Of a DNA stretch of 64,000 bases, positions 4,277 through 39,710 are shown piece by piece. The notes under the pieces were generated by a model. It searched no databases. It was not told where the DNA came from and was given only the letters and a program-made list of their open reading frames with translations. Source of the stretch: Schmidtea polychroa (taxonomy: Eukaryota); assembly GCA_044892525.1 (NCBI GenBank), contig CM097885.1:18850001-18914000 (forward strand), read 5' to 3'. The first letter of the stretch is position 1, and every line of letters begins with the position of its first letter. The position numbers were made by a program, and so were the translations under genes.

Positions 4277-4970
4277 TTTTTATTTTCTAATTATTTTTTG
4301 CTAAATTTACCTCCATGATGGATTTGGAACGATTCCAGAACATTCCATATTAATTTTAATTTAATTTTTATTTTAATGATGTTTTTATTGCTCTATGTGG
4401 CTTTTATGATGGTTATCGCCATTTTTATGAAATGTTCTGGGATTCTTCTAGAATTTTTAGCGTCTTACCATCTTTCCAATGGCGTAGCAATTGGTTGTGC
4501 CGGTTGTGCACGGCACAAGGGCCCAGGACGAAAAATTAGTAAAATTTATACGTTCGAGCATTATAAATTCCCCGATTGTCATCAAACCAAGCATCGCTTT
4601 GGCGTTTGTTTTGTTTTTATTAAGACAGCAACCACAGTTTGGACGGTTTATACATTTAATATTATTAGGAATCTATATTGGATATAGTTGTAAACCACAT
4701 ATGGGTCAAATATTTTGTGCGTCCCAAAATCTGCACAAGGGCCCCAGAAATCCTTGGTACGCCACTGCATCTTTCTCAGCTATTCGAGTCTATTTTTGTA
4801 ATTTTGTGTTTCTTTGCTATTTTTGAGTTAGTTTCTTGCACTACTTCTTGCATTTGTATCATTTTATTTAATTTCTGTGTTTATATTTTTTGTTGTTTTT
4901 CCTCCTAATTAATATTGTTTATTTGATGTATTTTTATATTTAACTGAACTTATTGCTATTTGCGTGCTAA
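4277..4970. mobile_element. Diverged fragment of the giant-element LTR family
   Basis: Matches ~9970-10430 (e.g. CCATGATGGATTTGGAAC..TTCCAGAACATT); interrupted by a MITE. Confidence 0.75.
4477..4767. mobile_element. hAT-type MITE
   Basis: TIRs CAATGGCGTAGCAA / TTGGTACGCCACTG; perfect 8-bp TSD CATCTTTC at 4469-4476 and 4768-4775. Confidence 0.85.
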
Positions 4971-5971: not shown

Positions 5972-6557
5972 ATAAATACAGTAAGAAATAATCAATATAA
6001 ATATGTTGAGTTGTATACAAAAGTCAAAATATTATTAGTTCCTACGCTTAATTACTATTGATTAAAAAGCGATTTACAGAATCAGCTGTCAGGCAATTTA
6101 TTTGCAATTAAAAAGGACTGATCAAGAAAGTAATAAAAGAGATTACTAATCTTAATAGTGGTGGGTTACTGGTGGTTGAATGATTGAGTGCTGTTACCAG
6201 CGTAACCCAAAATACAACATTGTTTTTTCCGCTTGGTACCCGTTGAGTGATCAACGTTGGTACTGTACCAAGGGTTGAGTACTCGCAAAAAGTGAGCGCA
6301 TCAAAGCACTATAGTTGTCGAGTACTCCGTGGGTTCACGGACTACCGATAGAAGGTGTGTGTCCGATTTCTCAGGTCCCTTTATCAAAATTGTTTTCCCA
6401 ACCTTATGCACAAACTCTCATTTCCCAGGCAATCATAAACTGTACTAGTCATTATTTTATCACTACAAAACGTGCAGTATTTTAACAAGGAACATATTAT
6501 TTGAAGACTACCACCATACATAAAAATACTACAAAACACCTAAAACCGAATATAAGT

Positions 6558-7028
6558 TCAAACAGGCTTATTGGTAGGACTGGCCAATTCCGTCGCATCT
6601 GCTAGTGACGAATTTGCTTGTCGCTCGTATTCGGCCAGTCTAGCTTTCTTCAATTTTTCCCGAATATTTCGGCCTAACCGCTTTCTTGTGGGTTTCTCTT
6701 TCGCGGCCGGGGGGTATATTGCTGCTAGTTCCACGGTCAACGGCCGGATTTGGCTTATGGCGGCTCCGTGAACTACTTGTTCATTGCGTTCGGTTTTTAA
6801 CGCGCGGAGCTGGAGTTTCAGTGCCCGGATCTCCATCTGATCCTGCGCAGCTTGCGTCTGCAGTTGAAGGACCTGCGCCACCTTCTTTTTCATATCCTCG
6901 GGACTAAACCAGGTGCTTTCTAGTTCCCGGCATCGTCCCTTGAGCTTGTCTACTCGTATGCGGAGCTCCTCGGACTGTTTTTGAGCATCTGCTCTATCTC
7001 TTCGCAGATTTTCCAATAGTTTGAACAC
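6558..7028 (-). CDS. LTR-encoded coiled-coil protein with basic NLS-like patch (no genomic ATG; starts at a splice-acceptor-like site)
   Basis: 156-codon ORF; decayed homologs with a shared WFSPE.MK...EIR.LK motif at ~48250, ~56150 and ~61030 imply coding constraint. Confidence 0.7.
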   Translation of the reverse strand: MFKLLENLRRDRADAQKQSEELRIRVDKLKGRCRELESTWFSPEDMKKKVAQVLQLQTQAAQDQMEIRALKLQLRALKTERNEQVVHGAAISQIRPLTVELAAIYPPAAKEKPTRKRLGRNIREKLKKARLAEYERQANSSLADATELASPTNKPV

Positions 7029-7237
7029 TAGATAAATTCAACGATTATATTCTTGCAGCATACTCTTCATTCAATTATAAAATAAAATCAATATTATAAA
7101 TAAACATAGTTTCGGATGTTAAGCACGCAATACACAAGATGATTTATTAAAAGGACTGAAATAATTATCACTAAAATCAAAGTTTAATAAAGTCACAACT
7201 GGATGATAATTTGCAAAAACAAAATTTTGACGATGAG

Positions 7238-7603
7238 TCAGTTCAGTCGCTTGCGAGGCCTTCCCCTCTTCCGCGGGGTTGCCTCGGCCTCTTCTAGGTC
7301 CTCCACGGTTTTTCCCTCTTTTTCTGCTTGGATTTGTAGCTCGATTTTCTTGAGTCGCATCTGAGCTGCTTCTACCTCGATGGCCGCTCGGTCGCGGGCC
7401 TCTTGCAAAAAATCGTTTGTGGGCTCTGTTTTTACCCACGCCGGAGCGTCCGGCTCCGGCCCACTCCTGATTACTGGGCCAAAGTTGTCGAGGTCCAAAC
7501 CCCGATTCCAATCATGGATACGGTGCCATATGTACCGTGTACGGAGTCTGGTAAGCATCTGTCGGTCGACTTCTTCGTGGCTATCGCTGTCAGAGTAGGA
7601 CAT
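7238..7603 (-). CDS. LTR-encoded small protein with a C-terminal AT-hook
   Basis: 121 aa ending TPRKRGRPRKRLN; ATG preceded by TTTTGTAG-AA. Confidence 0.7.
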   Translation of the reverse strand: MSYSDSDSHEEVDRQMLTRLRTRYIWHRIHDWNRGLDLDNFGPVIRSGPEPDAPAWVKTEPTNDFLQEARDRAAIEVEAAQMRLKKIELQIQAEKEGKTVEDLEEAEATPRKRGRPRKRLN

Positions 7604-8111
7604 TTCTACAAAATAATAATCAAGCCCCTCTATACTGATTGAGATACGACGTCAACCACAAGATTTTGTTGACCCTTTTTCCCTTTAAAAAAAAATATTT
7701 TATTTTAAGACTAACATCTATAAGCTTAGGAACAGTGGAATAAGATTTCCTACTTTATCAAAACAAACACAAAAAAAGGAATTTCGTCAAAATTCGTTTG
7801 TTTAAATCAATCATTTCCATTCAAAATTTTTGTTTACCATGAGTGGTAATTTTAATCACTATTTATAAATTTTAATTTATATGTTAATAAAATGTAAAAT
7901 TTTTTTAGATCGTCATTTTTAGGCCACTTAATTCGGGCACGCTGGGGCGACAGGTACTAGCAACGAACTAAGCTCTTCGTCTGCTTACCTTTCCTTCGGT
8001 TGTGCTCGTTATGAGTGGTTTGCTCTGCATACAAGTAATTTATTTAATTTGCTAATTTCTAAATTTCCAGGTGATCGATATCGGATTGGGATATCGATTT
8101 TTTGTAGTTAA

Positions 8112-8470
8112 CTGTAATAATACCAATAATAATAACAATGAAATAACGATACCAATAATAATAATAATAATGATAATAATAATATTAATAATAGCAATGA
8201 TAGTAATAATAATAAGAATAATAATAAATTTTAATAATGGTAATAATAATAATACTAATAATAATAATAACAAGAATAATAATAAATTTTTATAATGGGA
8301 CTGATAATGATGATAATAATAATAATGCTAATTATGATATTCATAATAATGATAATAATAATATAATAATAATAAGAATAAGAATAATAATACTAATAGT
8401 AATGATAATGTTGATACTGCTAATAGTAATAACCAGGGGAATGATCAGGATTATGATAACTATAATTTTA
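8112..8470. repeat. Degenerate (AAT)n microsatellite inside the LTR (copy at ~37996-38354)
   Basis: Direct reading; it generates spurious poly-I/N/L ORFs. Confidence 0.9.
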
Positions 8471-10836
8471 TAATCCCATGTTTTAAAATTATAAATTTAT
8501 GTTCTATGATTTATACTTTGATAATTTTCGATTTATAATTTAAAATTTTTCAATTTAGGGATTTACAATCTTGTAATTTATAATTATAATTTCATATTTT
8601 GAAATTTATACATTCATATTTTATAAGTTATAATTGCTTAACTTATAATTTATAAGTTTATAATCTAAAATTTATACTTTTGTAATTCGTATTTTCGTAC
8701 TTTATAATTTGAAATTTGTAGTCGACGGAATATACTTCTTGCAACTTCCTTTCTATGATCAACATTGTTTTCCGCAGTACTTACAGATTTCCTGGTCCTA
8801 TTTGTGGATTAAACTTCAGGGTTCTAGCGCGTCTATCGCCTATCTGTAACCAATCCTAAGTTGATTTTTATACGAAAAATTGTTTATTACTATCTCTGAT
8901 CAGACTTTCTCCATTAACAATTTACATTTTCAGGATCGACGTGATTTGTACCTAGCTATCGTAATTATTTATAACTTATAGTTTTATAGTTAACAACAAG
9001 AATATTACAACTAAGAGCCTACCCATTTACAAACATTTTAAAGTGGGAACTAGATTTAAAATGTCTATCTTTACTCGGAATCAGCATATCTAGATCAAGT
9101 TATACCTGTACGTATGCCGAATATCTCTCCTATTTCTATTACTTTATCAAAGATCCTTACTACAAAATCTAGTTCGGCATATATCTAAGTATAATTGAAA
9201 TTACCATTATGAATCAACTAGCTACATTAATGTGAGTGTAGAATTGTGTAATTTTAGGTACGAGCTCTACTCAAATTAGAACCTTAGTGTAGAGTTATTG
9301 TTCAGGATTTTAAGTGTTGAGTTTAATTGTATATTACGCAATGAGTCGGGAAGAATATTGCTTCCATGGCCCCACTGTGACCACGTCCACAAACCTTAGT
9401 GTTGTGTGCTAAGTCAACCATTTACGGCTGACCTTAAATAAATACGAAGAGTCAGGCGGAGGGTTTCCTCGACCTAACTCCATGGCAGGACCATGAAGTA
9501 GTTCGACCTCCGGCTGACCCGAACAAAAAGAAATCATATAATAAATATCACTATAATAATGATAATGCGTGTCTGCATGTCCTGTTAATAACGATTTTAA
9601 TAAATTGGATGCAGGACTGAACAACGACGCAGGAATACCAGTACGCCGTTGATCACTCATACATCGCAAAAAATTTTAAGCAAAAAATAAATTTAAAATA
9701 CCATCTATATAATTAAACAATTAATATACAAATAAAGATCAATGCTTACTATCGATTTTGGAAATTTCGTCACAAAAATTTGGCATAAAAGTGATTGATT
9801 GTGACTGAAACGTGTCAGTATATATACCTATTTAGTACACGTGTATGTATTGATGCATTAAAACAAACTCGAATTCTTTTTATTCCAGAATTTTCTATTT
9901 TACGATTTTGCTATTTTTAATGGCAATTTTTGTGCCATAATTTTTGTTTTTATTTTTATATTTTTATTTTTTAATTATTTTTCCTTAATTTTACGTCCAT
10001 GATGGATTTGGAACGGTTCCAGAACATTCTATTTTACTTTTAATTTAATTTTTATTTTAACTGATGTTTTTATGAATTCTTTTTGAGATTTTTTATTTTT
10101 AATACTAATTTATTTATTTTCCTTAACTTTTGTTGTTCTAGATAACTTTTGTGATGGTCATCGCCATTTTTATAGAATGTTCTGGGTTTTTCTGGAATGT
10201 TTTACTGTTTTTATCGTCTCTTAAGTTGTTCGAGTCTGTTTTTTTGTAACTCTGTGTTTATTTGGTTATTTTTGAGTTAGATTTTTGCATCACTTCTTGC
10301 TTTTGTATAATTTTGTTTAATTTCTTTGTTTATGTTTTTGTTGCTTTCTCCTTTAGTTAATATTGTTTATTTGGTGTAGGTTTTAATATTTAACTATACT
10401 TGGTGCTTTTTTACTTGCTGTGTACCTACGCGTTTCAGTCACAATTAGTATTTTGGGTCTAGAAATCAGTTCTAGCCCAACATAAAACACTCGGGGGCCC
10501 ATAAAATTGCGACCCGCAATTTAAATCACAAGATGAAGAAAATTATTTTTCAGAATACTTGCACTATATTACAAGTGCCTACATGCAAATTGGGTCTACG
10601 AGCTACAGGGTCGTGACCTCAATACCCACATACATAAAAAGGCTACTATTATACTACATTCTACGGATGGGTTGAAAGATGAAGAAAAGAACGACCGAGG
10701 TCGGTCCACACGAAAATAAAATTATCATGCTCAAGAATCAATGTTATTAGTCACAATCAGTCTCAGTCTTTGAAATCATGATTGTTTGATAATGTTTTAT
10801 AATGTCATGAAATGTTTATACTGTCGTGATGTCACA

Positions 10837-11823
10837 TTAATAAAATTCGGTTGTTCGGGATCTCGTCTCGATGACGGCTCTGGTTTCAATGTTTGGGGGA
10901 GATTTGAAGTAGCTTGGTTGGTTCGTTGTTTGGACTAGCTGTTCTTCCATTGGGATACGAATACTTCTTGATTGTTCCTTTAGTTTGAGGGTTTTGTTTC
11001 TTTCTTTACTGGAATTGGGTTTGAGTGCAATCAGGCTCAGTATGGTGATGTTTATCATTAGGCTCGCCGCTAATAGGATCAATATTGTGAGGGATTCAGA
11101 CTCTCTCGGTTCTATTACTTTGGGTTTGTTCATAATTTCTTTTAATTGGGTTGTATCCGCCGTTTCTGATTTTTCGGGCTTATTGAATTTGTTTTCTTCT
11201 GAGGTGACAACTTTCTTTATTGCCTCAAGGGTTTTAATCATCTTCTCGGAGTTCGTTGGGTTTTTGTTTATGGTAGTTAGGATTTCCCTTGTCATTTCTT
11301 TCAAGGTTTTCGTTACCTCATTTTTAATGCTGGGTTCCTCTTTGATGATGGAAGTTATTTTTCCTTTCATTTCCTCCAAAGATTTTACTACTGTTTCGCA
11401 ATTGCTTGAACGTCCATAGGCGGTTGCTGTTACCTGTTGTTTTATTTCCTCTAATATTATTACCATCATTCTCATTGCGGCTGGATCTGTTTGGGATTCT
11501 CTCTTTGATTTCTGACTTTGACATTGTTTGGCTAATGTTGCTATCTGGGTTCTGATAACTTTCATTTCTTGTTCTAACATTGTTTTTATTGTCTGAGCCA
11601 TTTGCACTTCCGTCGAACTTTCAGTTGTTTGTGGACATTGCGAACATTGTAACTTGATTTGTTCGCATTCCTCATTGGGTTTTTCGCAGATCGATTTAAA
11701 GCTACTACATGTACTATCTTCTCTGCGATATGGGTATTCTTTCTGGCATCTGATCATTGATTCTTCTGCTTGCAGGATTTTTGGCATTGTCATTATAATC
11801 ATCATCACGATTAGGCTTCTCAT
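10837..11823 (-). CDS. Accessory type-I membrane protein
   Basis: N-terminal signal-like peptide, six-Cys cluster, repeated helical stalk (KTLKEM/KTLEAI/KSLEEM), TM ILILLAASLMINITILSLIAL, cytoplasmic tail. Confidence 0.8.
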   Translation of the reverse strand: MRSLIVMMIIMTMPKILQAEESMIRCQKEYPYRREDSTCSSFKSICEKPNEECEQIKLQCSQCPQTTESSTEVQMAQTIKTMLEQEMKVIRTQIATLAKQCQSQKSKRESQTDPAAMRMMVIILEEIKQQVTATAYGRSSNCETVVKSLEEMKGKITSIIKEEPSIKNEVTKTLKEMTREILTTINKNPTNSEKMIKTLEAIKKVVTSEENKFNKPEKSETADTTQLKEIMNKPKVIEPRESESLTILILLAASLMINITILSLIALKPNSSKERNKTLKLKEQSRSIRIPMEEQLVQTTNQPSYFKSPPNIETRAVIETRSRTTEFY

Positions 11824-11899
11824 CTTTACATATACATATATGTTAATAATAATTACTTGGCTTTATTTACAATTTATTTACACGGTTATTTTGTCTCAT

Positions 11900-12667
11900 T
11901 TATTGGGAGCCACCGACCTCATCCCTTAATTTTACGGGAGGTTCAGGTGCTCGTCTTTTGCTCAACTCGTTCATTCTTATTACTTCGAGTTGCGTTGCTA
12001 TCAACTGTCTCTTTAATTCTGGTATTTCTTGTAATTGCTTCTCTTTACTTTTCCATTTTCTCTGCTTGATGGTTATTGCCGTCTGCAATGCTTGCATGCT
12101 TCGTCGTTTTTGATTTAAGATTCTCCGGTAATTTTCTTTCAACTTCCATTGTTTTTCTGTTTCCTCTCTTTGTTCCTTGATCTCTTCCTTGAGTTTTACA
12201 TTTCTCTTCTCGACTTTTTTACTTTCTCGCACTCTTGTTTTTGCATAAGCATATTGTGCTTCTAACTGCTCGATATAGACTTGGTCGATATTCACAATCT
12301 TTTTCAACTTCCTTGTTTCTGATTTCCAATAATCTTCGATTACTGCCTGAGCTCTCAACTCTACTATCTCTTGTCTCAGGTTTTTATTTTCTGTCTCTTT
12401 TCGTTTCGATTCCTTTATTTTCCTCAAAATTTCTTGCTTGACAGTGTTTATTAATCGTCTTGATTGAACAATATGCTGCCTCAATCTCGTAATCTCTACA
12501 TTTTGATTTGCAATCTTTAATTTGAACAACTTCTTGCTGACTCTCCATTTATTGCTATAATATTTCATCGGTTCTTGTTTGATTGGTATCATATCCTGGT
12601 TTTGTTCAGGTTGGTCGTTTGACTTTCCTTCGTTACTCGTTGATTCTCTTTCTTTTAAATAATTCAT
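11900..12667 (-). CDS. Accessory basic coiled-coil protein
   Basis: Long K/E/R/Q-rich ORF; I place the start at ATG 12667 (MNYLKE), after TTTTTGTAG-AT, rather than at 12685. Confidence 0.75.
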   Translation of the reverse strand: MNYLKERESTSNEGKSNDQPEQNQDMIPIKQEPMKYYSNKWRVSKKLFKLKIANQNVEITRLRQHIVQSRRLINTVKQEILRKIKESKRKETENKNLRQEIVELRAQAVIEDYWKSETRKLKKIVNIDQVYIEQLEAQYAYAKTRVRESKKVEKRNVKLKEEIKEQREETEKQWKLKENYRRILNQKRRSMQALQTAITIKQRKWKSKEKQLQEIPELKRQLIATQLEVIRMNELSKRRAPEPPVKLRDEVGGSQ

Positions 12668-12750
12668 ATCTACAAAAATATACATATCATATTTCCTTTT
12701 GTCTTCTTTTTATTCTGAATTTTTTGGTTTTGTAATTTTTATTTGGTTTT

Positions 12751-12752
<2 letters not shown>

Positions 12753-12805
<53 letters not shown>
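12753..12805 (-). repeat. Poly(A)53 tract on the element sense strand
   Basis: 53 consecutive T on +, 32 nt downstream of the stop of ORF 12838..14436. Confidence 0.95.
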
Positions 12806-12837
12806 CATTCTTATTTACAGGCAACATCTCCCTTCGA

Positions 12838-14436
12838 CTAAATCCATGTTGCGTTATTTTGTTCGTTATTTTCATCGAAGCCTTCATCTGTGGTGACTTC
12901 GGCAGGCTGTGGCACTTGCAACGGGAACGGGTAGAGTGGCATTAATAATATTGGTGGTTGTCTCCTTAACCGATCTATTTCCTCTCGTAGTTCCGTTGAG
13001 ATGTTTATTTCCTCATCCAATAAAAACGTTAATCTACCTTCGTTTTCTATCATTTCGTTTAATTCCTCTTCCAATCGTTGGGTTCTTTCGAGCGTTTTTA
13101 GTTTCTCAATTTCCGCTCTCAAATTTGCTTCATTTTCTTCGAAGCATCGTTTTATTATCTCGGTTTCCTGTTTGGTTTGTTGAATTGTCTTGTCGCACTC
13201 CTCTCTATATTTCGCATTAAGCTCAATCTGGTGCTTCCAATTCACATCCCTTTGGGTGTACATACCTTTATATCCGTTCATCTCTTGATTGGCTTCTTCC
13301 ACTTCGGTTTGTAATTGTCGGATCTGTCGATCTTGGTCTGTCAATTGTTGTTCCCATCTCTTTTCCTGGAATTCATACCTTCTTATTTCTCGAGTCTGTT
13401 TCTTTATGATTCTCTGTCTACCGTCGCTGATCCGCGTCTTGATTCTATGTTCTCTACTCAATCGGCTGATCTCATCTTTTTGGTTTTCTATCGTTTCCCA
13501 TATTTTAAATTCGTCTCTTTCCATCAGTTTTATTGGTAACTGTCTTAACTCCTCTTTGGTCTCTTTCCAATTCTTTTTCCATTTTCGGGCTTGATGCTTG
13601 AGACACTTTTCGGTTTCCTCAGTTTTCTGCTGTCGTTTCCTCCACTCTACTTCCTCTTCTTCTCGCTGTGCAGCTCTTGTTTCGTAAAATTCTTGGTCTG
13701 CTTTTCGTAATCGCAGTTGTTCCTTGCTACTGATTTTCCAATAGAGCACTTGAGTTTGACTTCCTAGGTATTTATACTTCCATTTCTGGGCTTGTATCTT
13801 TATTTGTGTGTTAATTCGCTCTAATACGTTATCTCTAACAATTGGTTCTCTATGCGGTGTTCTCCTCCCTTGCCCTCTGACTTCGTTTAGGGTCTTTTTG
13901 CATCTGTCCCATTTTTCTTTCATCATTGCGCATTTGCCCTTTACTTCTTCTAGTTCGGCCTTGTAATTCCGTATTTGATGTTCGTGACTATCATTCTGCC
14001 TTGTCTGGAGGGTTTCGTACTTTAGTTTCCATTGTTGCGCTTGTAGTTTTATTCGTTCCGTTTTACGCTGTTCCTCCTCGTATTGTTCCTTTGCTTCCCT
14101 AATTTGTGCCTTCTGCATTATTATCTCTCCGCATAACCCAACTATCTCCATAATCCGCTGAGTTCGTAAATTCGAGAGCTCTTCCTCCAATTCTTGGTAT
14201 GTTGAGGTATTTCTCACATCCTCGGTTAATTCCTCTACCTGTTTCATCCACTCCTCCTTTGTTGCTAGTGCTTCCGCCTTCTCCGCTTCTAATTCTTGTT
14301 GCTTTTTCTCATACATGGTTTTGTACATTTCTATTTCTCTCTTTACTCTTTCTGCTTCGTATGTTTGTATGATGGATTTGTACTGTTCGAGTTGTTGCAT
14401 CTCGGTTTCCACATAGGTTTGTGATTCTTTATTCAT
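12838..14436 (-). CDS. Accessory long coiled-coil protein
   Basis: 532 aa, E/K/Q/R-rich heptads; internally repeated Q(A)xxWKxKY motif. Confidence 0.8.
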   Translation of the reverse strand: MNKESQTYVETEMQQLEQYKSIIQTYEAERVKREIEMYKTMYEKKQQELEAEKAEALATKEEWMKQVEELTEDVRNTSTYQELEEELSNLRTQRIMEIVGLCGEIIMQKAQIREAKEQYEEEQRKTERIKLQAQQWKLKYETLQTRQNDSHEHQIRNYKAELEEVKGKCAMMKEKWDRCKKTLNEVRGQGRRTPHREPIVRDNVLERINTQIKIQAQKWKYKYLGSQTQVLYWKISSKEQLRLRKADQEFYETRAAQREEEEVEWRKRQQKTEETEKCLKHQARKWKKNWKETKEELRQLPIKLMERDEFKIWETIENQKDEISRLSREHRIKTRISDGRQRIIKKQTREIRRYEFQEKRWEQQLTDQDRQIRQLQTEVEEANQEMNGYKGMYTQRDVNWKHQIELNAKYREECDKTIQQTKQETEIIKRCFEENEANLRAEIEKLKTLERTQRLEEELNEMIENEGRLTFLLDEEINISTELREEIDRLRRQPPILLMPLYPFPLQVPQPAEVTTDEGFDENNEQNNATWI

Positions 14437-14518
14437 TGTCTAAATAATTACACTATTACTACCACTATTATTTCATACATTTATTATCTACACTTTATAC
14501 ACGGAATTTTAATTTTTG

Positions 14519-15697
14519 TTATTGATCGGCGTAGCGGAATCCTTTGATTCGCTGCGCAATCCTCTGTCTGCACATCGGACATTCCTTTACTTTTCTACTA
14601 CATGTGGCACATGCGATCAAATGTCCGCATGGCATATGAATAACTTCTACACTCCTCTCCCAACACATAGTACATTTGATATCTCGTAAGATAGCTGTTT
14701 TGACCATTGATTCTTCTTTTATTTTTGTTTCAGGTTTTTCTCTATACTGGGTTATCGCTCTGATCATATCGTACGTTGTTGTTGGTATATGTACATTTTT
14801 CTGTAGTTTCTCTCTAATCATGTTCTTTGCCCTTGTCGTGCCTATTCCGGCTGCTTTCAACGCTCTGCACATGTTGGGTTTGTCTACCACTTCGTCAACC
14901 TCTTCCTCTGTTACTAGTACTTCCGGATATTCGGTTTCTTGTTCGTTGTGATATAGGCACCATGCTTGATGTCTAATTTCTGGTATGCCTTCTTCCGGTA
15001 ATCTCTGTTGGCTTTCGCATCTTTCACACTTTAGTATTTGATTTTCTGTTAGGTAGAACCCTCTTATTGCTAATTCAGGTCCTCTCGTATCATCTCCGAA
15101 CGTTTTCATTCTATTATCTGCTATTTGCGTGAGGAATTCCCCTTCACAAGTTGGAACATACTCATCAACGATTCTGGTTATCGCGATGCTCATTTTCCCT
15201 CCTTTTTCGTCTTCAGTTTTCAATTTCTCCAAGGCTTCGTATTTGATTTCCGGTTTGTTGTGTACATCAAATCCCAGTACGAATAGACAAGTTGGGAATC
15301 GTCTACGATGTTCCTCCTTTGGGTGTTCTCCTTTTTTCCATTCTGCTAATTTCCCTTTACAGAAACGACATGTTACTTGATCGGGTATCTCTGGTTTTCC
15401 GGAGAAGAAAAATCCGTCGCGTGCTAGCGCTCGGCTCTGTTCCTTGGTGAAAATGGTCTGATGTTCAAATGACAGATATCTCTGGTTCTCACATCTGAAT
15501 TGTTCATTATCTCCCAGTTTCAAATTTTCGTGTACCCAATTATAATCGTTTCCCATTCTCCGATAATATGCGTAACTACTTGGTTTTGTTTTGCTGACTT
15601 CCGCATCCTTCACTCTTTCTCTAGGTGGCATATTGTCCTCTTCCTCTCTCATTGTGATCGTTTTCTTTCGGATATTCGGTCTCTCTTGATTAATCAT
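14519..15697 (-). CDS. Inhibitor-of-apoptosis (IAP) protein: BIR, degenerate BIR, C-terminal RING
   Basis: LARDGFFF..DQVTCRFC..LAEW...EH....PTC (BIR); RMKTF...LAIRGFY...CERC...H...C; CTMCWER..VIHMPCGHL.ACATC....CPMCR (IAP-type RING). Confidence 0.92.
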   Translation of the reverse strand: MINQERPNIRKKTITMREEEDNMPPRERVKDAEVSKTKPSSYAYYRRMGNDYNWVHENLKLGDNEQFRCENQRYLSFEHQTIFTKEQSRALARDGFFFSGKPEIPDQVTCRFCKGKLAEWKKGEHPKEEHRRRFPTCLFVLGFDVHNKPEIKYEALEKLKTEDEKGGKMSIAITRIVDEYVPTCEGEFLTQIADNRMKTFGDDTRGPELAIRGFYLTENQILKCERCESQQRLPEEGIPEIRHQAWCLYHNEQETEYPEVLVTEEEVDEVVDKPNMCRALKAAGIGTTRAKNMIREKLQKNVHIPTTTYDMIRAITQYREKPETKIKEESMVKTAILRDIKCTMCWERSVEVIHMPCGHLIACATCSRKVKECPMCRQRIAQRIKGFRYADQ

Positions 15698-15837
15698 CTA
15701 TAATAAATTTCATCATTTCTTTTTACATTTTCTTTTTCTAATTTTTATGGTTTTGGCAAGTTACTTTACTGTATACAATAACTTTATATTTACTTTACAT
15801 CGTTTTTACAAAATATTTACAGTTCCCTTCTATCCGT

Positions 15838-17262
15838 CTATCGTATTTCTATTGTTGGTCCTTCCTCATCTAGTTCGATTAGGAAGAATATAGTGTCCTT
15901 TTCTATGTAGGACCCTTCATTAAATTGGTATAGCTGCATAAACTCTGCTACTCCTACCGCAGGATTAACCTCTGTAATCGGTTTATTCCCTGCTGGACTG
16001 GATGCTCGAAAACACATTATATGTGTCTTTTTTGCTCCTAAGAGAGATATTTTTAATCTATGTCGGAATGGCCATGCTATTAGGTCGTCAAAATCTCCTT
16101 TACAAATCTGCATATATATGGACATGCACCGATCTTTAAACTTTCCTTCACCATTTGGAAACCATCTCAATTTCATCTTGTATCCATGTTTCTTGGCGTA
16201 GAATGGTTTGCTCACTATCGTTGTCTGGATTCCTTGCTTTGCTTGCTCCATTATTTCCGTTATTCCTTGGATTTTCCACATGTATGGCAGTATTGGTAGT
16301 TCCTCTGTTGTCAGTTCCTTTGTAGTCCATTTGGTTTGTAATTTAGTTACTTCGACTAATTTGTCGTCTAATTTCAACATCCTTTGTGTTACGGCTTCTC
16401 TCGTATTTTCGAAGCTTTCCTGTGAGCTCAGCATTTCTTTTATCATGATTTTATGTGATTTGAGTTCGTCTTTGACGTCTTCAATTGCTCTTGCTGTTAA
16501 CTCTATTGCTCTCATCATCTTTTGCATGTGCTCGAATGTATTCTCCTCCACATGCTTCTTCATTTCTTCTGCTGGTAATTGTGCTCTACAGTCGAATGTC
16601 ACCATTGGGCATTTTATTGCTTTTCTCGTGCATATCTCCCAATGTTCATTTAATCTGACGTTGTTAATTTCTCCACACTCGTTTGGGCATTTCCCTGTAT
16701 ATTCGTCGCAAATCCGTCTTTCTACTGCGTTTCGATGTTCCATTTCGATTTCTCTCCAATTAGCAGTTTCTCCGCAAAATTCGCATTTTTCCGTTCGCGC
16801 TTCGCATTCCCCTTTATGTTTGGTTTTCTCTTTTCGTAAAAACTTTACCGTGCATGCTTCGCATTCCGATTCCAGATATTCGCATACGTCTGTATGGGCT
16901 CTTAACTCCTTTACTCGGCCTGTCCATTCGCATGACCTTTGGGTGCATCTTATTTTCACTTCTCTGATTTCTCGGTTCATTGCTCTATCCGGTATCGTAC
17001 CAGTGGGAACCAACTTAAATGCTTCTCCACATCCTGGACAAGTTTCTCGCTTTAGTCTGGCTAATCTTATATCACACCCTCGGCACAATCTACACCCGCA
17101 TCGAGTTTGACTTGCTCCAATTAATAATCTTCTACATGCTGTATCGGCACATAATAATCTCTCTTCGAACTCGTCCGGCTCGGCTTGGTATTTTCTCATC
17201 AACTCATAGTTAATCTTTTGTTCCTCTGCTTCTCTCCGGTTTTCCTCTGCTTTGTTTTGCAT
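15838..17262 (-). CDS. TRAF-family protein (RING-like, TRAF zinc fingers, coiled coil, MATH)
   Basis: Cys-rich N-terminus; C..GC/SC.W.G...L..H...C zinc fingers; MATH motifs WKI...SKPFY..GYKMKLR.FPNG...GDFDDLIAWPF...DTIFF. Confidence 0.92.
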   Translation of the reverse strand: MQNKAEENRREAEEQKINYELMRKYQAEPDEFEERLLCADTACRRLLIGASQTRCGCRLCRGCDIRLARLKRETCPGCGEAFKLVPTGTIPDRAMNREIREVKIRCTQRSCEWTGRVKELRAHTDVCEYLESECEACTVKFLRKEKTKHKGECEARTEKCEFCGETANWREIEMEHRNAVERRICDEYTGKCPNECGEINNVRLNEHWEICTRKAIKCPMVTFDCRAQLPAEEMKKHVEENTFEHMQKMMRAIELTARAIEDVKDELKSHKIMIKEMLSSQESFENTREAVTQRMLKLDDKLVEVTKLQTKWTTKELTTEELPILPYMWKIQGITEIMEQAKQGIQTTIVSKPFYAKKHGYKMKLRWFPNGEGKFKDRCMSIYMQICKGDFDDLIAWPFRHRLKISLLGAKKTHIMCFRASSPAGNKPITEVNPAVGVAEFMQLYQFNEGSYIEKDTIFFLIELDEEGPTIEIR

Positions 17263-17351
17263 TCTACAATGATGATTTTTAATCTTGGGATTTCTACTTG
17301 ATTATAACTCTATTTATTTACAGGATTATTTACATTTCACTCCTTTCTCTC

Positions 17352-17807
17352 CTACACATCTACCGTCGAGTCCGGTTCCCCTGTTCCTGGTAACCCGGTC
17401 ATCCACTCGACTAAACTGGTAATATCATCATGTTGTCGATTTTCATGCAACCTTCTAATTTCTTCCGCTTGCCATCTGATTTGGCTTATTAACTGATTGT
17501 TATTATACTCTAGTTGCGCGATTATTTGGTGTTGTTCCTCTATTTTTGTAATATATATTGCATTTCTATTAATACTCTCTATCAACGCCGTTTGGTTTCG
17601 TACCCAGTGCTCTTGAGTCTGATTTGTCAATTGGGTCATTAATTCACACTGTACCCTCCACATGGATCCTGTTGGCTGACTCGGCTGGTTTGGCACGTTC
17701 ATTTCCATCATGTCTACTGGATGTACATTCATAAGCGGCTGTTCTCTTACTTCAACAACATGTGGTATCCCATTTGGGTGTTCTTGCTCTTCGTTTCTCT
17801 GGTTCAT
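17352..17807 (-). CDS. Accessory protein of unknown function (Q/N-rich, short coiled coil)
   Basis: 151-aa ATG ORF in the same strand and spacing pattern as its neighbours. Confidence 0.7.
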   Translation of the reverse strand: MNQRNEEQEHPNGIPHVVEVREQPLMNVHPVDMMEMNVPNQPSQPTGSMWRVQCELMTQLTNQTQEHWVRNQTALIESINRNAIYITKIEEQHQIIAQLEYNNNQLISQIRWQAEEIRRLHENRQHDDITSLVEWMTGLPGTGEPDSTVDV

Positions 17808-17955
17808 TCCTATTTATAATACATGGTCATCATACTTGTTTTTGATTTTTCTACATATTGTTTTAATTTACTACTTTTATTTTGTACATACTACTACTAT
17901 TATCACTACTTTTATCATTTCATTTATACATTATTTACAACAACTCCTCCTCTCG

Positions 17956-32022: not shown

Positions 32023-33113
32023 TATTTCTTGACACAAAATTGTTATATTGGTTGACTCTGAACTATTTCCTTCCTCGTCTGATGATTCAATGTCACTTAT
32101 CGGATCTAGTTCGGTTCGTTTAAGATCGTCGCTGTTCTCAAATTCGTTTGTTAAACTGTCTGATTCAAATACTGTTTCTACTGATGCTGGCTTCCTGTGT
32201 AGTTTTCTGTTGGTCTTGGCCTTTTGTATCTCTTCCTTTTCCAATAAACTGAGGTTTCCTTTACTTTTTCGCCTCGTTCGGTTAGCTATGCTATCAATTT
32301 TTCCTCCTTTTAATATCCTTTGCTAAATTTTCTACTTTGTCAATCGAGCTCGATGTTTTCTAAGTATTTTTCTCGCTTTAATCTTTACGATTCTCTAACT
32401 CTTCTTGGATTTGGTTTTATTAATTTCCTTGATTCTTCGCTTCTAATTGATTTCTCTATATCTCTTGATTTCTATTGCTTTCTTGATTTCTTTGATTTCT
32501 TTCTGAATTGTTTGCTTTATTCTAAAATAATTAACACCTCTAGTACATATCATAAATTCTCTTTGTTAAACCCTTCATTTACTTTCCCTTTTCCCTTTAT
32601 TTTACTGTCCCTTCGCTTCAAATTTTCTAGCTTTTCTACACTTCTCGCTATTCGCCCCATTTTGATTTTAAGTTGATTTTAAATTATCTATAACTCGTAT
32701 CAATTATCTATATAGTCGTATCAATTATCTATCCCTTTTATTATTATCATAGAAATATAATATTAATCACATAAATATCAAAATAAACATATCATTAATA
32801 AATAAAATTCAATAATTCAACTACTATCTATTCGTTCGCTTTTCCCCATCCAAAAACTGGTTTAATTTTCGCTTGCGCCGGCGCTTTATCATAATTCTCC
32901 TCTACTCATTACATATTTATCGCACTTAATCTATTTCAGTTTAATCAATTTCATAGTTAATCATTGATGCTTTGGTTCGCGCGACCTCTACATCCACCTT
33001 TATTTACCATCGGCTCTCTGGCCGGTTTGTTCAACTCCTTTATTTTCATTTAAATCATTTCACTCAATTACCATCGGCTCCTTGGCCGGTTTAATCAACT
33101 CATTTTAATCTCA

Positions 33114-33425
33114 TGAAGTCTTTTACGACTCCTAGACGCCTGGGCTTTTACACCATTACGCCATATAATCTACTATTACCCATCAACGCTTTGGTTTGTT
33201 AGACCTCCGCGTCGGCATCGGCTTCCGGCCGGTTTAATCAAAATTGAAGTCTTTTACGACTCCTAGACGCCTGGGCTTTTACACCATTACGCCATATAAT
33301 CTACTATTACCCATCAACGCTTTGGTTTGTTAGACCTCCGCGTCGGCATCGGCTTCCGGCCGGTTTAATCAAAATTGAAGTCTTTTACGACTCCTAGACG
33401 CCTGGGCTTTTACACCATTACGCCG
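33114..33425. repeat. 131-bp tandem repeat (~2.4 copies) in the 5' leader
   Basis: Unit TGAAGTCTTTTACGACTCCTAGACGCC... restarts at 33114, 33245 and 33376; degenerate sub-units extend to ~32970. Confidence 0.9.
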
Positions 33426-34834
33426 TATTCGCGGTCTTCGGTCCCTGACCGGTTTCAAATGCCCTAAATGAGGTTTCTTCAACCCCCAGACGCCTTCGGT
33501 TTTAACACCTACTATCGTCCCTACCGCGATTAAATTGAGTTGACAGTTGACTTTCGGGCTAATCAAAAATTCGAGGCTCCTCCTACTCCAACTCTTAATC
33601 TGCTGAGGCCTCACAACTGGCTCAATTCTTGGCCGCTTATTGAAAAGAGTCTAATACCGGTAACTCTAATCTCATCGCCGTTTCACTGGGCCTATCGGTA
33701 CTCGGTGTGGGCATCCGGGTTTTGTACCGACCCCTGCTAGCAATAATCACGAAGAAAAAACATCCTATCTATCAGGATTTAAAAAAAAAACACGGAAATG
33801 CCTAATCGCCTTGATCGTGATTCTCAAAAGTGATGAACCAGATCTCCCGACTAGTGAAGATAAAAGGAAATTGGGTATGCAGTTGACTCTCGGTCTCCCG
33901 CCTCACAACTGGTCCAATCTTGGTTGCCTGTTGAGTACGAGTTCTTTACCGGTTGACTCGCATCTCACAACCGTTTCACTGGGCTCCTTGATACTCGGTG
34001 TAGGTAACTGGGTCTCTCTCGCTCGCTACCCTTCCGGGTTTTTGTATCAAGTCCCGCTAGCAACTCAAAAAGGTGCGCCCAATACTCGGTGTGGCATCCG
34101 GGTTTTTGTATTGGGTGATCCAGCATCATCAGTCCCTTGGCTGATAATCTCCTGGACACTACAGTCCGGTGGTTAGCCGCTGTACTCGGGTGCCTCATCA
34201 CTCGCTAGGGAAAAATCATTATTTTCATCTGATTTGAAGTCCAAAAACGGTTTCTTCAAATCCGCAGCTGCTCTCGGATTAAATTTTTAACATTTAGCGC
34301 GTGTTTTTCAATTTTTATTTTATTTTTCTATTTTTATTCGCCCTTTTAGTTAGTCCCAGTCTCCCAGACAAAAATATAATAATCGCGTTGGTTCGTTTCC
34401 CACAAGTGGTGATCAGTCACTGGACAGAAACTCCCCAACATTTGCGATGGATCCTACTACATTCTCTCATCAGGGTGATCAGGATTTCCCCATCCGGGCA
34501 AGTGTCGTAAGGACGATTCACTTGTCATCCCCTCATTATCGTATCTCTTTATGCCAAAATAACAAACAGGAAGAAAAGAAAATTGGAAATAAAAATCGTA
34601 CTGATCTTAGCGATCAGCTCATTCATACGACTATGATCAGTCCTGCATTCAATTCTGATTTTAGTTCTAATTGCTGTGTTGCTTGTCTATTTATTTAACG
34701 TATTCTGTGTTCTTTATATGTCTATGTTCATCGTATGTTTTATACCTTTCGGTTGCTATAATGGATTTTTAATATAATTTACTAATTTTTTCACTCCATA
34801 TTCATTCACAAGAAATTTATTTGACAACATCTCC

Positions 34835-35317
34835 TTATGGGAGGTATATTACAATTTTCTCTCTAACATTCGTATCGCATACGTCGCATCGTTTAATTTT
34901 CTCTGCGCAATTCTCGCAGTAGCATAAATGACCACATGGAATCGTCATTACTCGTATTTCATTGGTTCTGCATATGAAGCATTTTCTAAAATCTTTAACT
35001 TGATGTTCGATTGCTTCTTTAATTTCTTCCTCGATCGTTTCCATTTTTATCATTATCTCCTGCCATTTGATGTTAAATTTGGCATTGTCTAATCGTAAAT
35101 TTTGAAGTTGATAAACTCTTTTAGTGGTCAATTCTGCATTAGGTGTCGCTATTTTCATCATTACGCATATTTCCTCAGCTTGCGGTCTTGGATTCAAGCT
35201 CATCTCATCTTGGATTTTTATCAACTGGTCCGCTTTGCGATTTAGCCGTTGTAACGAATTGTGTGTTAAATCTACGAATTTTTCGAGTCTCTTTGTAATG
35301 TAGCCGGTTGATTCCAT
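34835..35317 (-). CDS. Upstream accessory coiled-coil plus IAP-type RING protein
   Basis: CFICRTNEIRVMTIPCGHLCYCENC....CDVC...KIVIYLP at the C-terminus; lies between the PBS and gag. Confidence 0.85.
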   Translation of the reverse strand: MESTGYITKRLEKFVDLTHNSLQRLNRKADQLIKIQDEMSLNPRPQAEEICVMMKIATPNAELTTKRVYQLQNLRLDNAKFNIKWQEIMIKMETIEEEIKEAIEHQVKDFRKCFICRTNEIRVMTIPCGHLCYCENCAEKIKRCDVCDTNVREKIVIYLP

Positions 35318-36016
35318 CTAATTAAGATTTATTAATTAAAGTTCTCTTTTTATTAATATTCCGCGTCATTTTTCCCCCTTTATCGTTTTTCCCCCTAATA
35401 TCCAGGATACTTTATTTTATTAGTGCTTCGATAAACCTTTACATTCTACTTATTACCCTTAACAACTCCGTCTCCCTCTGTTTAATGCTCTATTCCGCGC
35501 ACATTTCTTTCATGATCTTGTGATTTTATTACAATCGTTTTAATTATATATAACCCATATCCCATTCCTTATCGCCATATTTTACACGTTTTCTGATTAA
35601 GTTTAATTTCATTGTTCATTTGTTCTATCTTTATTAGCGTGCTATCCCCCCTTTTCCCTATTTTTAAATTTTTATTATTTCCTTATATTTACATTTTATT
35701 AATCGTTGCTATCTACAATTTTATTATAATTTGTTTTCGTTTTAATTTTCGTTTATCCTCATTCATTCTATTACTAAATTATTCGTACAGCATTCTCATA
35801 CCCACTTTCAATACATTCATATGCCGTCATACTTTAAAACTTCCATCACTCATTTAGACATTCTACATACATTTTATCATATTCGCATATCCATATACTA
35901 AGTTTAAGCGCTTGGGAAAACAACCTGCTCGGTCTTGAATGCATATCACTTTATATCCGCTTTTACTCTCTCTATTATATCTATTCTCGGGTTCTTTCAC
36001 CAATTAAATTTTCAAT

Positions 36017-36034
36017 ATCCCGGCTGAGCCCCCA
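36017..36034 (-). promoter_or_regulatory. Primer binding site, tRNA-Pro-like
   Basis: Minus strand TGGGGGCTCAGCCGGGAT matches the canonical tRNA-Pro PBS TGGGGGCTCGTCCGGGAT at 16/18; 8 nt from the 5' LTR. Confidence 0.85.
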
Positions 36035-36441
36035 AATTTGTATGGTGGGTTACTGGTGGTTGAATGATTGAGTGCTGTTACCAGCGTAACCCAAAATACA
36101 ACATTGTTTTTTCCGCTTGGTACCCGTTGAGTGATCAACGTTGGTACTGTACCAAGGGTTGAGTACTCGCAAAAAGTGAGCGCATCAAAGCACTATAGTT
36201 GTCGAGTACTCCGTGGGTTCACGGACTACCGATAGAAGGTGTGTGTCCGATTTCTCAGGTCCCTTTATCAAAATTGTTTTCCCAACCTTATGCACAAACT
36301 CTCATTTCCCAGGCAATCATAAACTGTACTAGTCATTATTTTATCACTACAAAACGTGCAGTATTTTAACAAGGAACATATTATTTGAAGACTACCACCA
36401 TACATAAAAATACTACAAAACACCTAAAACCGAATATAAGT

Positions 36442-36912
36442 TCAAACAGGCTTATTGGTAGGACTGGCCAATTCCGTCGCATCTGCTAGTGACGAATTTG
36501 CTTGTCGCTCGTATTCGGCCAGTCTAGCTTTCTTCAATTTTTCCCGAATATTTCGGCCTAACCGCTTTCTTGTGGGTTTCTCTTTCGCGGCCGGGGGGTA
36601 TATTGCTGCTAGTTCCACGGTCAACGGCCGGATTTGGCTTATGGCGGCTCCGTGAACTACTTGTTCATTGCGTTCGGTTTTTAACGCGCGGAGCTGGAGT
36701 TTCAGTGCCCGGATCTCCATCTGATCCTGCGCAGCTTGCGTCTGCAGTTGAAGGACCTGCGCCACCTTCTTTTTCATATCCTCGGGACTAAACCAGGTGC
36801 TTTCTAGTTCCCGGCATCGTCCCTTGAGCTTGTCTACTCGTATGCGGAGCTCCTCGGACTGTTTTTGAGCATCTGCTCTATCTCTTCGCAGATTTTCCAA
36901 TAGTTTGAACAC
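36442..36912 (-). CDS. LTR-encoded coiled-coil protein (5' LTR copy)
   Basis: Identical translation to 6558..7028. Confidence 0.7.
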   Translation of the reverse strand: MFKLLENLRRDRADAQKQSEELRIRVDKLKGRCRELESTWFSPEDMKKKVAQVLQLQTQAAQDQMEIRALKLQLRALKTERNEQVVHGAAISQIRPLTVELAAIYPPAAKEKPTRKRLGRNIREKLKKARLAEYERQANSSLADATELASPTNKPV

Positions 36913-37121
36913 TAGATAAATTCAACGATTATATTCTTGCAGCATACTCTTCATTCAATTATAAAATAAAATCAATATTATAAATAAACATAGTTTCGGA
37001 TGTTAAGCACGCAATACACAAGATGATTTATTAAAAGGACTGAAATAATTATCACTAAAATCAAAGTTTAATAAAGTCACAACTGGATGATAATTTGCAA
37101 AAACAAAATTTTGACGATGAG

Positions 37122-37487
37122 TCAGTTCAGTCGCTTGCGAGGCCTTCCCCTCTTCCGCGGGGTTGCCTCGGCCTCTTCTAGGTCCTCCACGGTTTTTCCC
37201 TCTTTTTCTGCTTGGATTTGTAGCTCGATTTTCTTGAGTCGCATCTGAGCTGCTTCTACCTCGATGGCCGCTCGGTCGCGGGCCTCTTGCAAAAAATCGT
37301 TTGTGGGCTCTGTTTTTACCCACGCCGGAGCGTCCGGCTCCGGCCCACTCCTGATTACTGGGCCAAAGTTGTCGAGGTCCAAACCCCGATTCCAATCATG
37401 GATACGGTGCCATATGTACCGTGTACGGAGTCTGGTAAGCATCTGTCGGTCGACTTCTTCGTGGCTATCGCTGTCAGAGTAGGACAT
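37122..37487 (-). CDS. LTR-encoded AT-hook protein (5' LTR copy)
   Basis: Identical translation to 7238..7603. Confidence 0.7.
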   Translation of the reverse strand: MSYSDSDSHEEVDRQMLTRLRTRYIWHRIHDWNRGLDLDNFGPVIRSGPEPDAPAWVKTEPTNDFLQEARDRAAIEVEAAQMRLKKIELQIQAEKEGKTVEDLEEAEATPRKRGRPRKRLN

Positions 37488-39627
37488 TTCTACAAAATAA
37501 TAATCAAGCCCCTCTATACTGATTGAGATACGACGTCAACCACAAGATTTTGTTGACCCTTTTTCCCTTTAAAAAAAAATATTTTATTTTAAGACTAACA
37601 TCTATAAGCTTAGGAACAGTGGAATAAGATTTCCTACTTTATCAAAACAAACACAAAAAAAGGAATTTCGTCAAAATTCGTTTGTTTAAATCAATCATTT
37701 CCATTCAAAATTTTTGTTTACCATGAGTGGTAATTTTAATCACTATTTATAAATTTTAATTTATATGTTAATAAAATGTAAAATTTTTTTAGATCGTCAT
37801 TTTTAGGCCACTTAATTCGGGCACGCTGGGGCGACAGGTACTAGCAACGAACTAAGCTCTTCGTCTGCTTACCTTTCCTTCGGTTGTGCTCGTTATGAGT
37901 GGTTTGCTCTGCATACAAGTAATTTATTTAATTTGCTAATTTCTAAATTTCCAGGTGATCGATATCGGATTGGGATATCGATTTTTTGTAGTTAACTGTA
38001 ATAATACCAATAATAATAACAATGAAATAACGATACCAATAATAATAATAATAATGATAATAATAATATTAATAATAGCAATGATAGTAATAATAATAAG
38101 AATAATAATAAATTTTAATAATGGTAATAATAATAATACTAATAATAATAATAACAAGAATAATAATAAATTTTTATAATGGGACTGATAATGATGATAA
38201 TAATAATAATGCTAATTATGATATTCATAATAATGATAATAATAATATAATAATAATAAGAATAAGAATAATAATACTAATAGTAATGATAATGTTGATA
38301 CTGCTAATAGTAATAACCAGGGGAATGATCAGGATTATGATAACTATAATTTTATAATCCCATGTTTTAAAATTATAAATTTATGTTCTATGATTTATAC
38401 TTTGATAATTTTCGATTTATAATTTAAAATTTTTCAATTTAGGGATTTACAATCTTGTAATTTATAATTATAATTTCATATTTTGAAATTTATACATTCA
38501 TATTTTATAAGTTATAATTGCTTAACTTATAATTTATAAGTTTATAATCTAAAATTTATACTTTTGTAATTCGTATTTTCGTACTTTATAATTTGAAATT
38601 TGTAGTCGACGGAATATACTTCTTGCAACTTCCTTTCTATGATCAACATTGTTTTCCGCAGTACTTACAGATTTCCTGGTCCTATTTGTGGATTAAACTT
38701 CAGGGTTCTAGCGCGTCTATCGCCTATCTGTAACCAATCCTAAGTTGATTTTTATACGAAAAATTGTTTATTACTATCTCTGATCAGACTTTCTCCATTA
38801 ACAATTTACATTTTCAGGATCGACGTGATTTGTACCTAGCTATCGTAATTATTTATAACTTATAGTTTTATAGTTAACAACAAGAATATTACAACTAAGA
38901 GCCTACCCATTTACAAACATTTTAAAGTGGGAACTAGATTTAAAATGTCTATCTTTACTCGGAATCAGCATATCTAGATCAAGTTATACCTGTACGTATG
39001 CCGAATATCTCTCCTATTTCTATTACTTTATCAAAGATCCTTACTACAAAATCTAGTTCGGCATATATCTAAGTATAATTGAAATTACCATTATGAATCA
39101 ACTAGCTACATTAATGTGAGTGTAGAATTGTGTAATTTTAGGTACGAGCTCTACTCAAATTAGAACCTTAGTGTAGAGTTATTGTTCAGGATTTTAAGTG
39201 TTGAGTTTAATTGTATATTACGCAATGAGTCGGGAAGAATATTGCTTCCATGGCCCCACTGTGACCACGTCCACAAACCTTAGTGTTGTGTGCTAAGTCA
39301 ACCATTTACGGCTGACCTTAAATAAATACGAAGAGTCAGGCGGAGGGTTTCCTCGACCTAACTCCATGGCAGGACCATGAAGTAGTTCGACCTCCGGCTG
39401 ACCCGAACAAAAAGAAATCATATAATAAATATCACTATAATAATGATAATGCGTGTCTGCATGTCCTGTTAATAACGATTTTAATAAATTGGATGCAGGA
39501 CTGAACAACGACGCAGGAATACCAGTACGCCGTTGATCACTCATACATCGCAAAAAATTTTAAGCAAAAAATAAATTTAAAATACCATCTATATAATTAA
39601 ACAATTAATATACAAATAAAGATCAAT

Positions 39628-39710
39628 GCTTACTATCGATTTTGGAAATTTCGTCACAAAAATTTGGCATAAAAGTGATTGATTGTGACTGAAACGTGTC
39701 AGTATATATA
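39628..39710 (-). promoter_or_regulatory. Candidate LTR core promoter and first splice donor
   Basis: Minus strand: TATATATA (39710-39703), Inr-like TCAGTC/TCACTT downstream, then GATA|GTAAGC donor at 39633. The TATA block is retained in relics at ~45615 and ~53684. Confidence 0.5.

Follow-up and report, generated by a model that had tools for sequence, protein, structure and literature searches.

A 64,000-nucleotide stretch of the Schmidtea polychroa genome (assembly GCA_044892525.1, contig CM097885.1, positions 18,850,001 to 18,914,000 of the forward strand; hereafter the window) raises the question of how a single mobile element could express a whole row of accessory open reading frames (ORFs). 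Positions 6159-40366, read on the minus strand, form one intact Ty3/gypsy long terminal repeat (LTR) retrotransposon of 34,208 bp, with TG...CA ends and a 4-bp target duplication. On its architecture, and not on a sequence comparison with the named Burro1-4 references, it is a Burro-type giant planarian gypsy retrotransposon, a kind of element already known. The RING ORF precedes the polyprotein gene, six ORFs follow it, and two more (L1 and L2) lie inside each LTR. The initial annotation had placed an AG dinucleotide just before each of these nine ORFs and had proposed that each becomes a separate mRNA by joining a common 5' leader, either by alternative cis-splicing or by spliced leader (SL) trans-splicing. 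We find it well supported by sequence comparison that the AGs behave like splice acceptors under selection. A donor in the LTR, D1, is quite likely to be joined to L1 and L2, and we lean slightly toward cis-splicing from this one LTR leader to all nine ORFs. The ORFs and their candidate acceptors are as follows.

37122-37491, minus strand: L1, 121 aa; acceptor 37491-37490, ATG 2 nt later
36442-36913, minus strand: L2, ~156 aa; acceptor 36913-36912; the exon starts with TG and has no start ATG of its own
34835-35319, minus strand: RING ORF, 160 aa; acceptor 35319-35318 (AG+2 in the family B homologue)
17352-17811, minus strand: 151-aa ORF; acceptor 17811-17810
15838-17265, minus strand: TRAF ORF, 474 aa; acceptor 17265-17264
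14519-15699 (coding 14519-15697), minus strand: IAP ORF (BIR + RING), 392 aa; acceptor 15699-15698
12838-14441, minus strand: 532-aa ORF, E/K/Q-rich and coiled-coil-like by eye; acceptor 14441-14440
11900-12671, minus strand: 255-aa ORF; acceptor 12671-12670
10837-11825, minus strand: 328-aa ORF; AAG acceptor 11825-11824

The AG dinucleotides before the accessory ORFs

All nine AGs are at the places claimed for them on the minus strand, with the G at 37490, 36912, 35318, 17810, 17264, 15698, 14440, 12670, and 11824. Eight of them stand 0-3 nt before an ATG and the ninth (36912) before TG-TTC, and each follows a T/A-rich stretch in which 14-19 of the preceding 20 nt are A or T. Of the 720 remaining sense-strand ATGs in the element, 32% are preceded by an AG at a distance of 0-3 nt and 11% by a YAG; against this baseline, the AG at 8/8 ATG starts gives P = 1.2e-4 and the YAG at 7/8 gives P = 1.8e-6, with the LTR sites of L1 and L2 counted once, the two LTRs being identical. 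The earlier count of "nine of nine" stands insofar as every AG is real, and it rests on two choices, i.e., 12667, which is the second in-frame ATG of the 255-aa ORF, and 36912, which has no ATG. The former is backed by the close copies, because the first in-frame ATG (12685), which has no AG, reads GTG in 5 of 16 of them; the latter holds because the coding frame of L2 is conserved up to the AG. In a mechanical set of first ATGs that includes gag, an AG is present at 8/10 starts (P = 0.003) and a YAG at 6/10, one of these eight (36777) being an internal Met. No AG stands within 3 nt of the polyprotein ATG (32022).

Presumed host single-exon ORFs have an AG within 3 nt of the start in none of six cases (two Tra2-like and four TRAF-like, with one unresolved start omitted). 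Host introns inferred from chaperonin genes of the same genome (20 rows, from which 3 duplicates were dropped) are 40-81 nt long and end, after A/T-rich runs, with YAG in 15 cases and AAG in 2 (n = 17). The acceptors of the element resemble these intron ends, including the AAG of the 328-aa ORF.

Loss of the AG in related copies had been named in advance as an observation that would speak against splicing, and the AG is kept both in close copies and in a second family, family B, whose accessory proteins are 23-32% identical to those here. The six 3' AGs are invariant in close copies (21-23 true matches each; fuzzy matches not ending in ATG were ignored), which says little because the copies are young; the element family is also abundant, and all 90 scored TRAF copies (of 1912 candidates in genome G000) are 99-100% identical. 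Family B is more distant. In its loci L053 and L060, taken together, the first ATG follows an AG by 0-3 nt in 7/7 ORF classes (null 0.34, P ~5e-4). The AG-to-ATG offset shifts between the families, from 0 to 2 for RING, from 1 to 1-2 for TRAF, and from 0 to 1 for the 328-aa ORF; the AG is therefore kept while sequence and frame turn over. No counterpart of IAP occurs among the family B loci examined, so the IAP acceptor has no deep test of this kind.

A candidate leader in the LTR

The LTR contains a concrete, conserved candidate for the common 5' leader that had been postulated; that every one of the nine ORFs joins it we can only infer. Its parts, with a slash marking the splice junction here and below, are as follows.

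39702-39712, minus strand: TATA-like box at the end of a block conserved among diverged LTRs; putative promoter
39634-39689, minus strand: candidate leader exon, 56 nt, from a conserved GTCACA element (39689), the putative start, to the donor
39628-39633, minus strand: candidate major splice donor D1, A/GTAAGC; junction 39634/39633
36018-36034, minus strand: primer-binding site, just inside the 5' LTR and downstream of D1; presumably of tRNA-Pro identity, with the same motif in family B

GTRAG follows GTCACA at a distance of 55-72 nt in 8 of 12 leader lineages, a count that is not a probability because these lineages are kin. In all 8 it comes after an A, with differing exon sequence, and one further lineage agrees; host donors have A at position -1 in 5/17. 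Genome-wide, 216 places match the leader end, and 216/216 continue with G. In family B, the LTRs show CCAAT, TATA, and then a G/GT donor ~40-55 nt on (4/4 LTRs shown). The family B LTRs have two further features. A second copy of the 3' end of the first leader exon follows ~45-50 nt later, which places a mini-intron of host size between the donor and an identical acceptor, and a second donor-like site is located ~170-210 nt on (L055:6810-6885, L060:6935-7010, L053:430-510, L061:6805-6875). The leader here contains an ATG at 39670 in weak context and in phase 1 to the donor. A strictly coding leader was rejected as a general rule.

Among distinct copies of L1 whose start can be recognised, 9 of 10 begin with AG + 2 nt + ATG (a further 3 have no such start), and two further lineages agree. 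The kept gap of exactly 2 nt is occupied by four different dinucleotides, and L1 is in frame with the leader ATG. The protein ends with the basic stretch PRKRGRPRK (37122-37160, minus strand), which we take to resemble an AT-hook or a nuclear localization signal.

In L2, AG/TG is present in 23/25 distinct copies (as YAG/TG), the diverged copies having 42-61% amino acid identity; the upstream sequence is wholly different between lineages, yet AG/TG at the exon start is kept. Before the L2 exon motif, the genome has 203 G and 1 non-G, and a branch-point-like CTRAY is found within 45 nt of the acceptor in 13/27 copies. Since the last A of the leader and the TG of the exon would together read ATG, the start codon of L2 would be formed at the junction. 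The L2 homologue of family B, in which the donor is G/GT, has its own ATG after the AG, as joining to D1 predicts. Every flatworm SL so far described ends in ATG (PMC12582326), and this ATG joined to L2 opens a wrong frame of 25 codons, so a flatworm SL cannot start L2. Of the two routes offered in the initial annotation, a cis leader thus fits the start-less L2 better than an SL, with the acceptors themselves well supported either way. A fusion of L1 to L2 through a donor inside L1 was rejected because no phase-1 GT is conserved. Neither L1 nor L2 matches a Pfam family, and an Atlas search gave no usable match; no relative of L2 was found in protein searches or in metagenome or viral contigs. 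One ENA protein is 42% alike to L2, and the likeness begins at the same Leu-Val register, which is suggestive only, being a comparison at the protein level.

In the scheme that we slightly favor, a promoter in the 5' LTR (TATA near 39712) would start the transcript near 39690, and its first ~56 nt would be the leader exon. For the donor at 39634/39633, the host spliceosome would have a choice of nine alternative acceptors at distances of 2.1-27.8 kb downstream, and, as each acceptor lies 0-3 nt before an ORF start, each spliced mRNA would be translated only for its first ORF. Many mRNAs would probably end locally, at a poly(A) site set by the paired TGTA motifs after the stops. Unspliced RNA, whose escape from splicing and whose regulation have to be supposed, would provide the polyprotein and the genome, whereas RNAs spliced to internal ORFs would lose the primer-binding site and would not be copied.

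Products of such splicing were sought in sequencing runs and in the genome. Four runs (X1-X3, guessed to be RNA, and X8, of uncertain kind) were examined as contigs over a 9-kb stretch of a close copy (L031) that includes the six 3' acceptors and D1, the L1, L2, RING, and gag sites being outside it. None of 10 joints, and none of the 24 loose ends listed (of 140), coincides with an acceptor or with D1. The runs also extend over the sequence upstream of the TATA box and look like DNA, so they are evidence neither way. In the genome, no spliced retrocopy was found: no leader-end match is followed by a non-G, and the one L2 exon after a non-G is a decayed copy. Of the breakpoints of deleted copies, 0/9 lie at an acceptor. 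These negative results are to be expected if the donor is upstream of the primer-binding site, and they add no support.

Several observations weigh against a single leader for all nine ORFs. The tie to D1 is direct for L1 and L2 only, and the 3' cassette, i.e., the six ORFs after the polyprotein, would need introns of 22-28 kb that skip the other acceptors and the poly(A)-like sites. No donor is in range in 4/12 leader lineages (decayed or interrupted copies), and 9/27 L2 copies have a nearer A/GT donor-like site (36 nt away here) that could supply the A. The leader ATG is open and in phase 1 in 6/8 lineages (one has ATC), but a stop closes its frame in L006 and in the L039 subfamily, which is young. 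Its frame agrees with that of L1, L2, and the 151-aa and 255-aa ORFs, and not with that of the other 5/9. In the L055/L058 subfamily of family B, an AG stands at the first ATG in 4/7 ORFs, or 7/7 when second ATGs are used. The lineages are related, so the conservation counts are not independent, and the data examined, with their DNA-like runs, contain no spliced read or spliced genomic copy.

The 3' cassette and competing explanations

The 3'-cassette spacers are 76-170 nt long and contain a poly(A)-like motif followed, 40-140 nt later, by the acceptor. The elements concerned are as follows.

11864-17939, minus strand: TGTAAATA motifs, starting at 17939, 17334, 17322, 15821, 12819, 11882, and 11871; a variant after the IAP stop
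12753-12805, minus strand: A53 tract, 6 nt after the TGTAAATAA motif; 19-53 nt long among copies

In 5/6 of the spacers, TGTAAATA lies 17-19 nt after the upstream stop, often doubled ~11 nt on, and the sixth contains the variant; 0/20000 shuffles reach 5/6 spacers with this placement. At the corresponding position, TGTA(A/T)ATA occurs in 4/6 (L060) and 4/5 (L055) of the family B spacers examined. The TGTA motif is absent here after RING, L1, L2, and the 328-aa ORF. Paired UGUA presumably fits the poly(A) enhancers bound by CFIm, and UGUAHAUA the sites of Pumilio; the TGTAAATA motifs are therefore candidate poly(A)-enhancer (CFIm) or PUF sites.

This layout, which is that of nematode operons, speaks for a hybrid in which a cis leader would serve the LTR ORFs (perhaps also RING), and the six-ORF 3' cassette would be an operon, cut and polyadenylated, with the host SL added at each AG. 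No long introns would be necessary, and the terminal ATG of the SL would be in frame with the RING, IAP, 532-aa, and 328-aa ORFs (4/9). SL trans-splicing has been described in Schmidtea (PMC12582326). On the other hand, the offsets shift between families and do not keep to the frame of an SL ATG. This argument is weak, because the SL ATG is in frame in only 28% of the trans-spliced mRNAs of S. mansoni (PMC9851317). The SL also cannot start L2 in its conserved frame, and the conserved donor D1 is upstream of all nine acceptors in the same transcript. Local 3' ends would suit a leader-plus-poly(A) scheme and an SL operon alike, so the hybrid retains a minor but substantial share of our belief for the 3' cassette.

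It is improbable that the acceptors are real and the donors are others, either local (mini-introns, exon skipping) or the following one behind a second promoter.

37867-37908, minus strand: possible second leader exon (36 nt) with donor D2, 37873/37872, downstream of an ATT tract; a weak candidate

The D2 region includes a 23-nt island common to the L007 lineage, where a GTGAG donor-like site follows, whereas D2 was not found in older lineages nor in L068/L077. Two donor-like sites per family B LTR, host introns as short as 40-46 nt, and the nearby A/GT of some L2 copies would suit such other donors. However, a local A/donor is absent in 18/27 L2 copies, and the five shortest spacers offer scant space for a promoter, an exon, and an intron. 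The ATT tract of the LTR is 295 bp long (37999-38293, minus strand), is also present in the L007 lineage, and is followed by ATCGATAT-like repeats and the D2 island (37867-37990). Its region is possibly a second promoter; tissue-specific promoters of planarians have been reported to contain A/T trinucleotide repeats (PMC10558129).

Expression without splicing, from own start sites, by reinitiation or by internal entry on a polycistronic RNA, with the AG as start context or a relic of gene capture, is very improbable: TA-repeat and TATA-like runs do precede several AGs, mainly in family B, and Burro accessory genes are held to be host-derived (PMC13465017, on the Burro1 IAP), but a start context would fix the distance whereas the offsets run 0-3, L2 has no ATG unless spliced, branch-point-like and T-rich runs stop exactly at the AG, where homology starts, and a relic would not outlast turnover to ~30% protein identity.

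Relation to known systems and implications

The remaining features of the element, and a related LTR nearby, are as follows.

36043-40366, minus strand: 5' LTR, 4,324 bp, identical to the 3' LTR
6159-10482, minus strand: 3' LTR, with second copies of the leader, the donor (9750/9749), and the two LTR ORFs with acceptors 7606 and 7028
17956-32022, minus strand: polyprotein, 4,688 aa (gag/CCHC, MATH, Monjiviricetes-type fusion protein, protease, reverse transcriptase, RNase H, integrase, ankyrin)
44932-49039, plus strand: solo LTR of the same family, diverged and decayed; AG+2 nt+ATG at 47547-47553 and T-rich CTAG/TG at 48250-48253

In the polyprotein, PF24664 is at residues 2073-2396 and the protease at 2603-2691, i.e., env lies between gag and protease. 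PMC6431247 describes Burro and GYPSM1 as planarian gypsy-like LTR retrotransposons of >30 kb with the same architecture. The likeness extends to the size and the LTRs, to a single polyprotein of ~4,700-4,900 aa with gag CCHC, MATH, protease, reverse transcriptase, RNase H, integrase, and ankyrin, to a mononegavirus-like env in frame between gag and protease, and to a BIR/RING module (here the separate ORF 14519-15697) and accessory ORFs. The BCL2-like, SUMO-like, and dUTPase-like motifs reported in Burro by HHpred gave no Pfam match here at E<=0.01, no profile-profile search having been made. Protein searches with IAP or L2 returned no planarian homologue; with IAP, two mollusc IAPs were retrieved.

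Complex retroviruses (HIV-1, foamy viruses) use one major donor and many acceptors. The element resembles them in a short 5' leader that would be joined to alternative acceptors just before accessory starts, and in unspliced RNA that would serve as gag-pol message and genome. It is a Ty3/gypsy-type element and not a retrovirus, and it differs in that the donor is inside the LTR, upstream of the primer-binding site, that env is inside the polyprotein, that nine acceptors are spread over 28 kb, that the LTR itself carries two ORFs, and that poly(A)-like motifs come after ORFs. Splicing occurs in Ty3/gypsy elements, in the env subgenomic RNA of Drosophila gypsy, whose start codon is formed at the splice junction as proposed for L2, and in the spliced intron of plant Ogre, although our literature search did not confirm these cases; one spliced RNA is made there, compared with the nine proposed here. 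The adenovirus major late unit, in which one promoter and one leader serve alternative acceptors paired with alternative poly(A) sites, is an analogy of mechanism only, in an unrelated DNA virus. With the SL-resolved operons of nematodes and flatworms, as presented in PMC12582326, PMC9851317, and PMC3510090, the element shares a tight same-strand row of ORFs, ~100-nt spacers, and a 3'-end-like motif followed by an acceptor; it differs in its conserved upstream cis donor and in L2, which the terminal ATG of a flatworm SL cannot start.

A more far-reaching thought, which we hold to be rather unlikely, is that Burro reached the gene control of complex viruses independently. One LTR leader would serve nine acceptors over 28 kb, with an own poly(A) site for each mRNA, as in the adenovirus late unit, and a start codon built at a junction; the weak ATG of the leader would set dosage by frame, and L1 and L2, which might come from solo LTRs as well, would switch expression in the manner of Tat and Rev, from spliced mRNAs for anti-apoptotic proteins to genomic RNA and back. 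By our reading, L1 has an AT-hook-like basic end, and L2 a coiled coil and a basic part.

The accessible parts of PMC6431247 and PMC13238120 do not mention splicing of Burro accessory ORFs. The literature searched, which did not cover the primary Burro papers (Grohme 2018; Lee 2026), gave no account of their mode of expression. As the kind of element is known, the expression map proposed for the accessory ORFs would be the new part, provisionally, since Lee 2026, on the IAP ORF, may already describe a spliced transcript.

Other features of the element and its copies were observed. Before its first ATG, the polyprotein frame stays open for another 100 codons (32023-32322, minus strand) without a Met; it is also open there in a close copy (L044), and for 121 codons in family B (L053:6987-7349); gag may start further upstream, by a non-AUG codon or a splice. 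A 60-nt intron that would give gag an upstream ATG was rejected, because the frame is not open and L044 lacks the ATG. A 131-bp tandem repeat (2.4 copies, 33114-33428) occupies the untranslated region between RING and gag, and its copy number varies among elements. One copy (L001-L004, G000:C2:172563500-172603100) has a tandem duplication of window positions 15501-26231, real or an assembly artefact; a close pair of TRAF matches on C2 is this internal duplication. A two-LTR copy (L075-L077), whose LTRs are of a third type, has no RING ORF (35859 is joined to 34171). In L007/L044-L046, L039, L068, L072, and L077, internal regions that are nearly identical go together with LTR interiors of several kinds, which differ in the leader, L1, and L2 (61-63% alike in protein for L007); LTR swapping among subfamilies would account for the different interiors.

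Two intronless Tra2-like RS/RRM ORFs flank the element (1128-1895, minus strand, and 62988-63743, plus strand); they are 73% alike over 318 nt and are probably retrocopies. A rearranged remnant beside the element (2136-4281 and 5079-5369) contains inverted arms of 367 nt together with pieces of gag-like ORFs and a fragment resembling integrase, labeled by eye. Elsewhere in G000, part of a chaperonin (PF00118 positions 311-454) is repeated at many sites (e.g., C1:74023328 and C2:154153047), in open frames of 230-1,377 aa, which suggests capture by another repeat family.

The analysis provides nine exact candidate junctions that can be checked in existing planarian long-read data, and either outcome, cis-splicing or use of the host SL, would be unusual for a Ty3/gypsy element. 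The Burro1 IAP is reported to protect planarian stem cells (as cited in PMC13465017). Between the promoter and the IAP ORF here there are 24 kb, including the 14-kb polyprotein gene, and the anatomy of the element suggests how such ORFs could be made, and with this a route by which the host could obtain IAP or TRAF without the transposition machinery.

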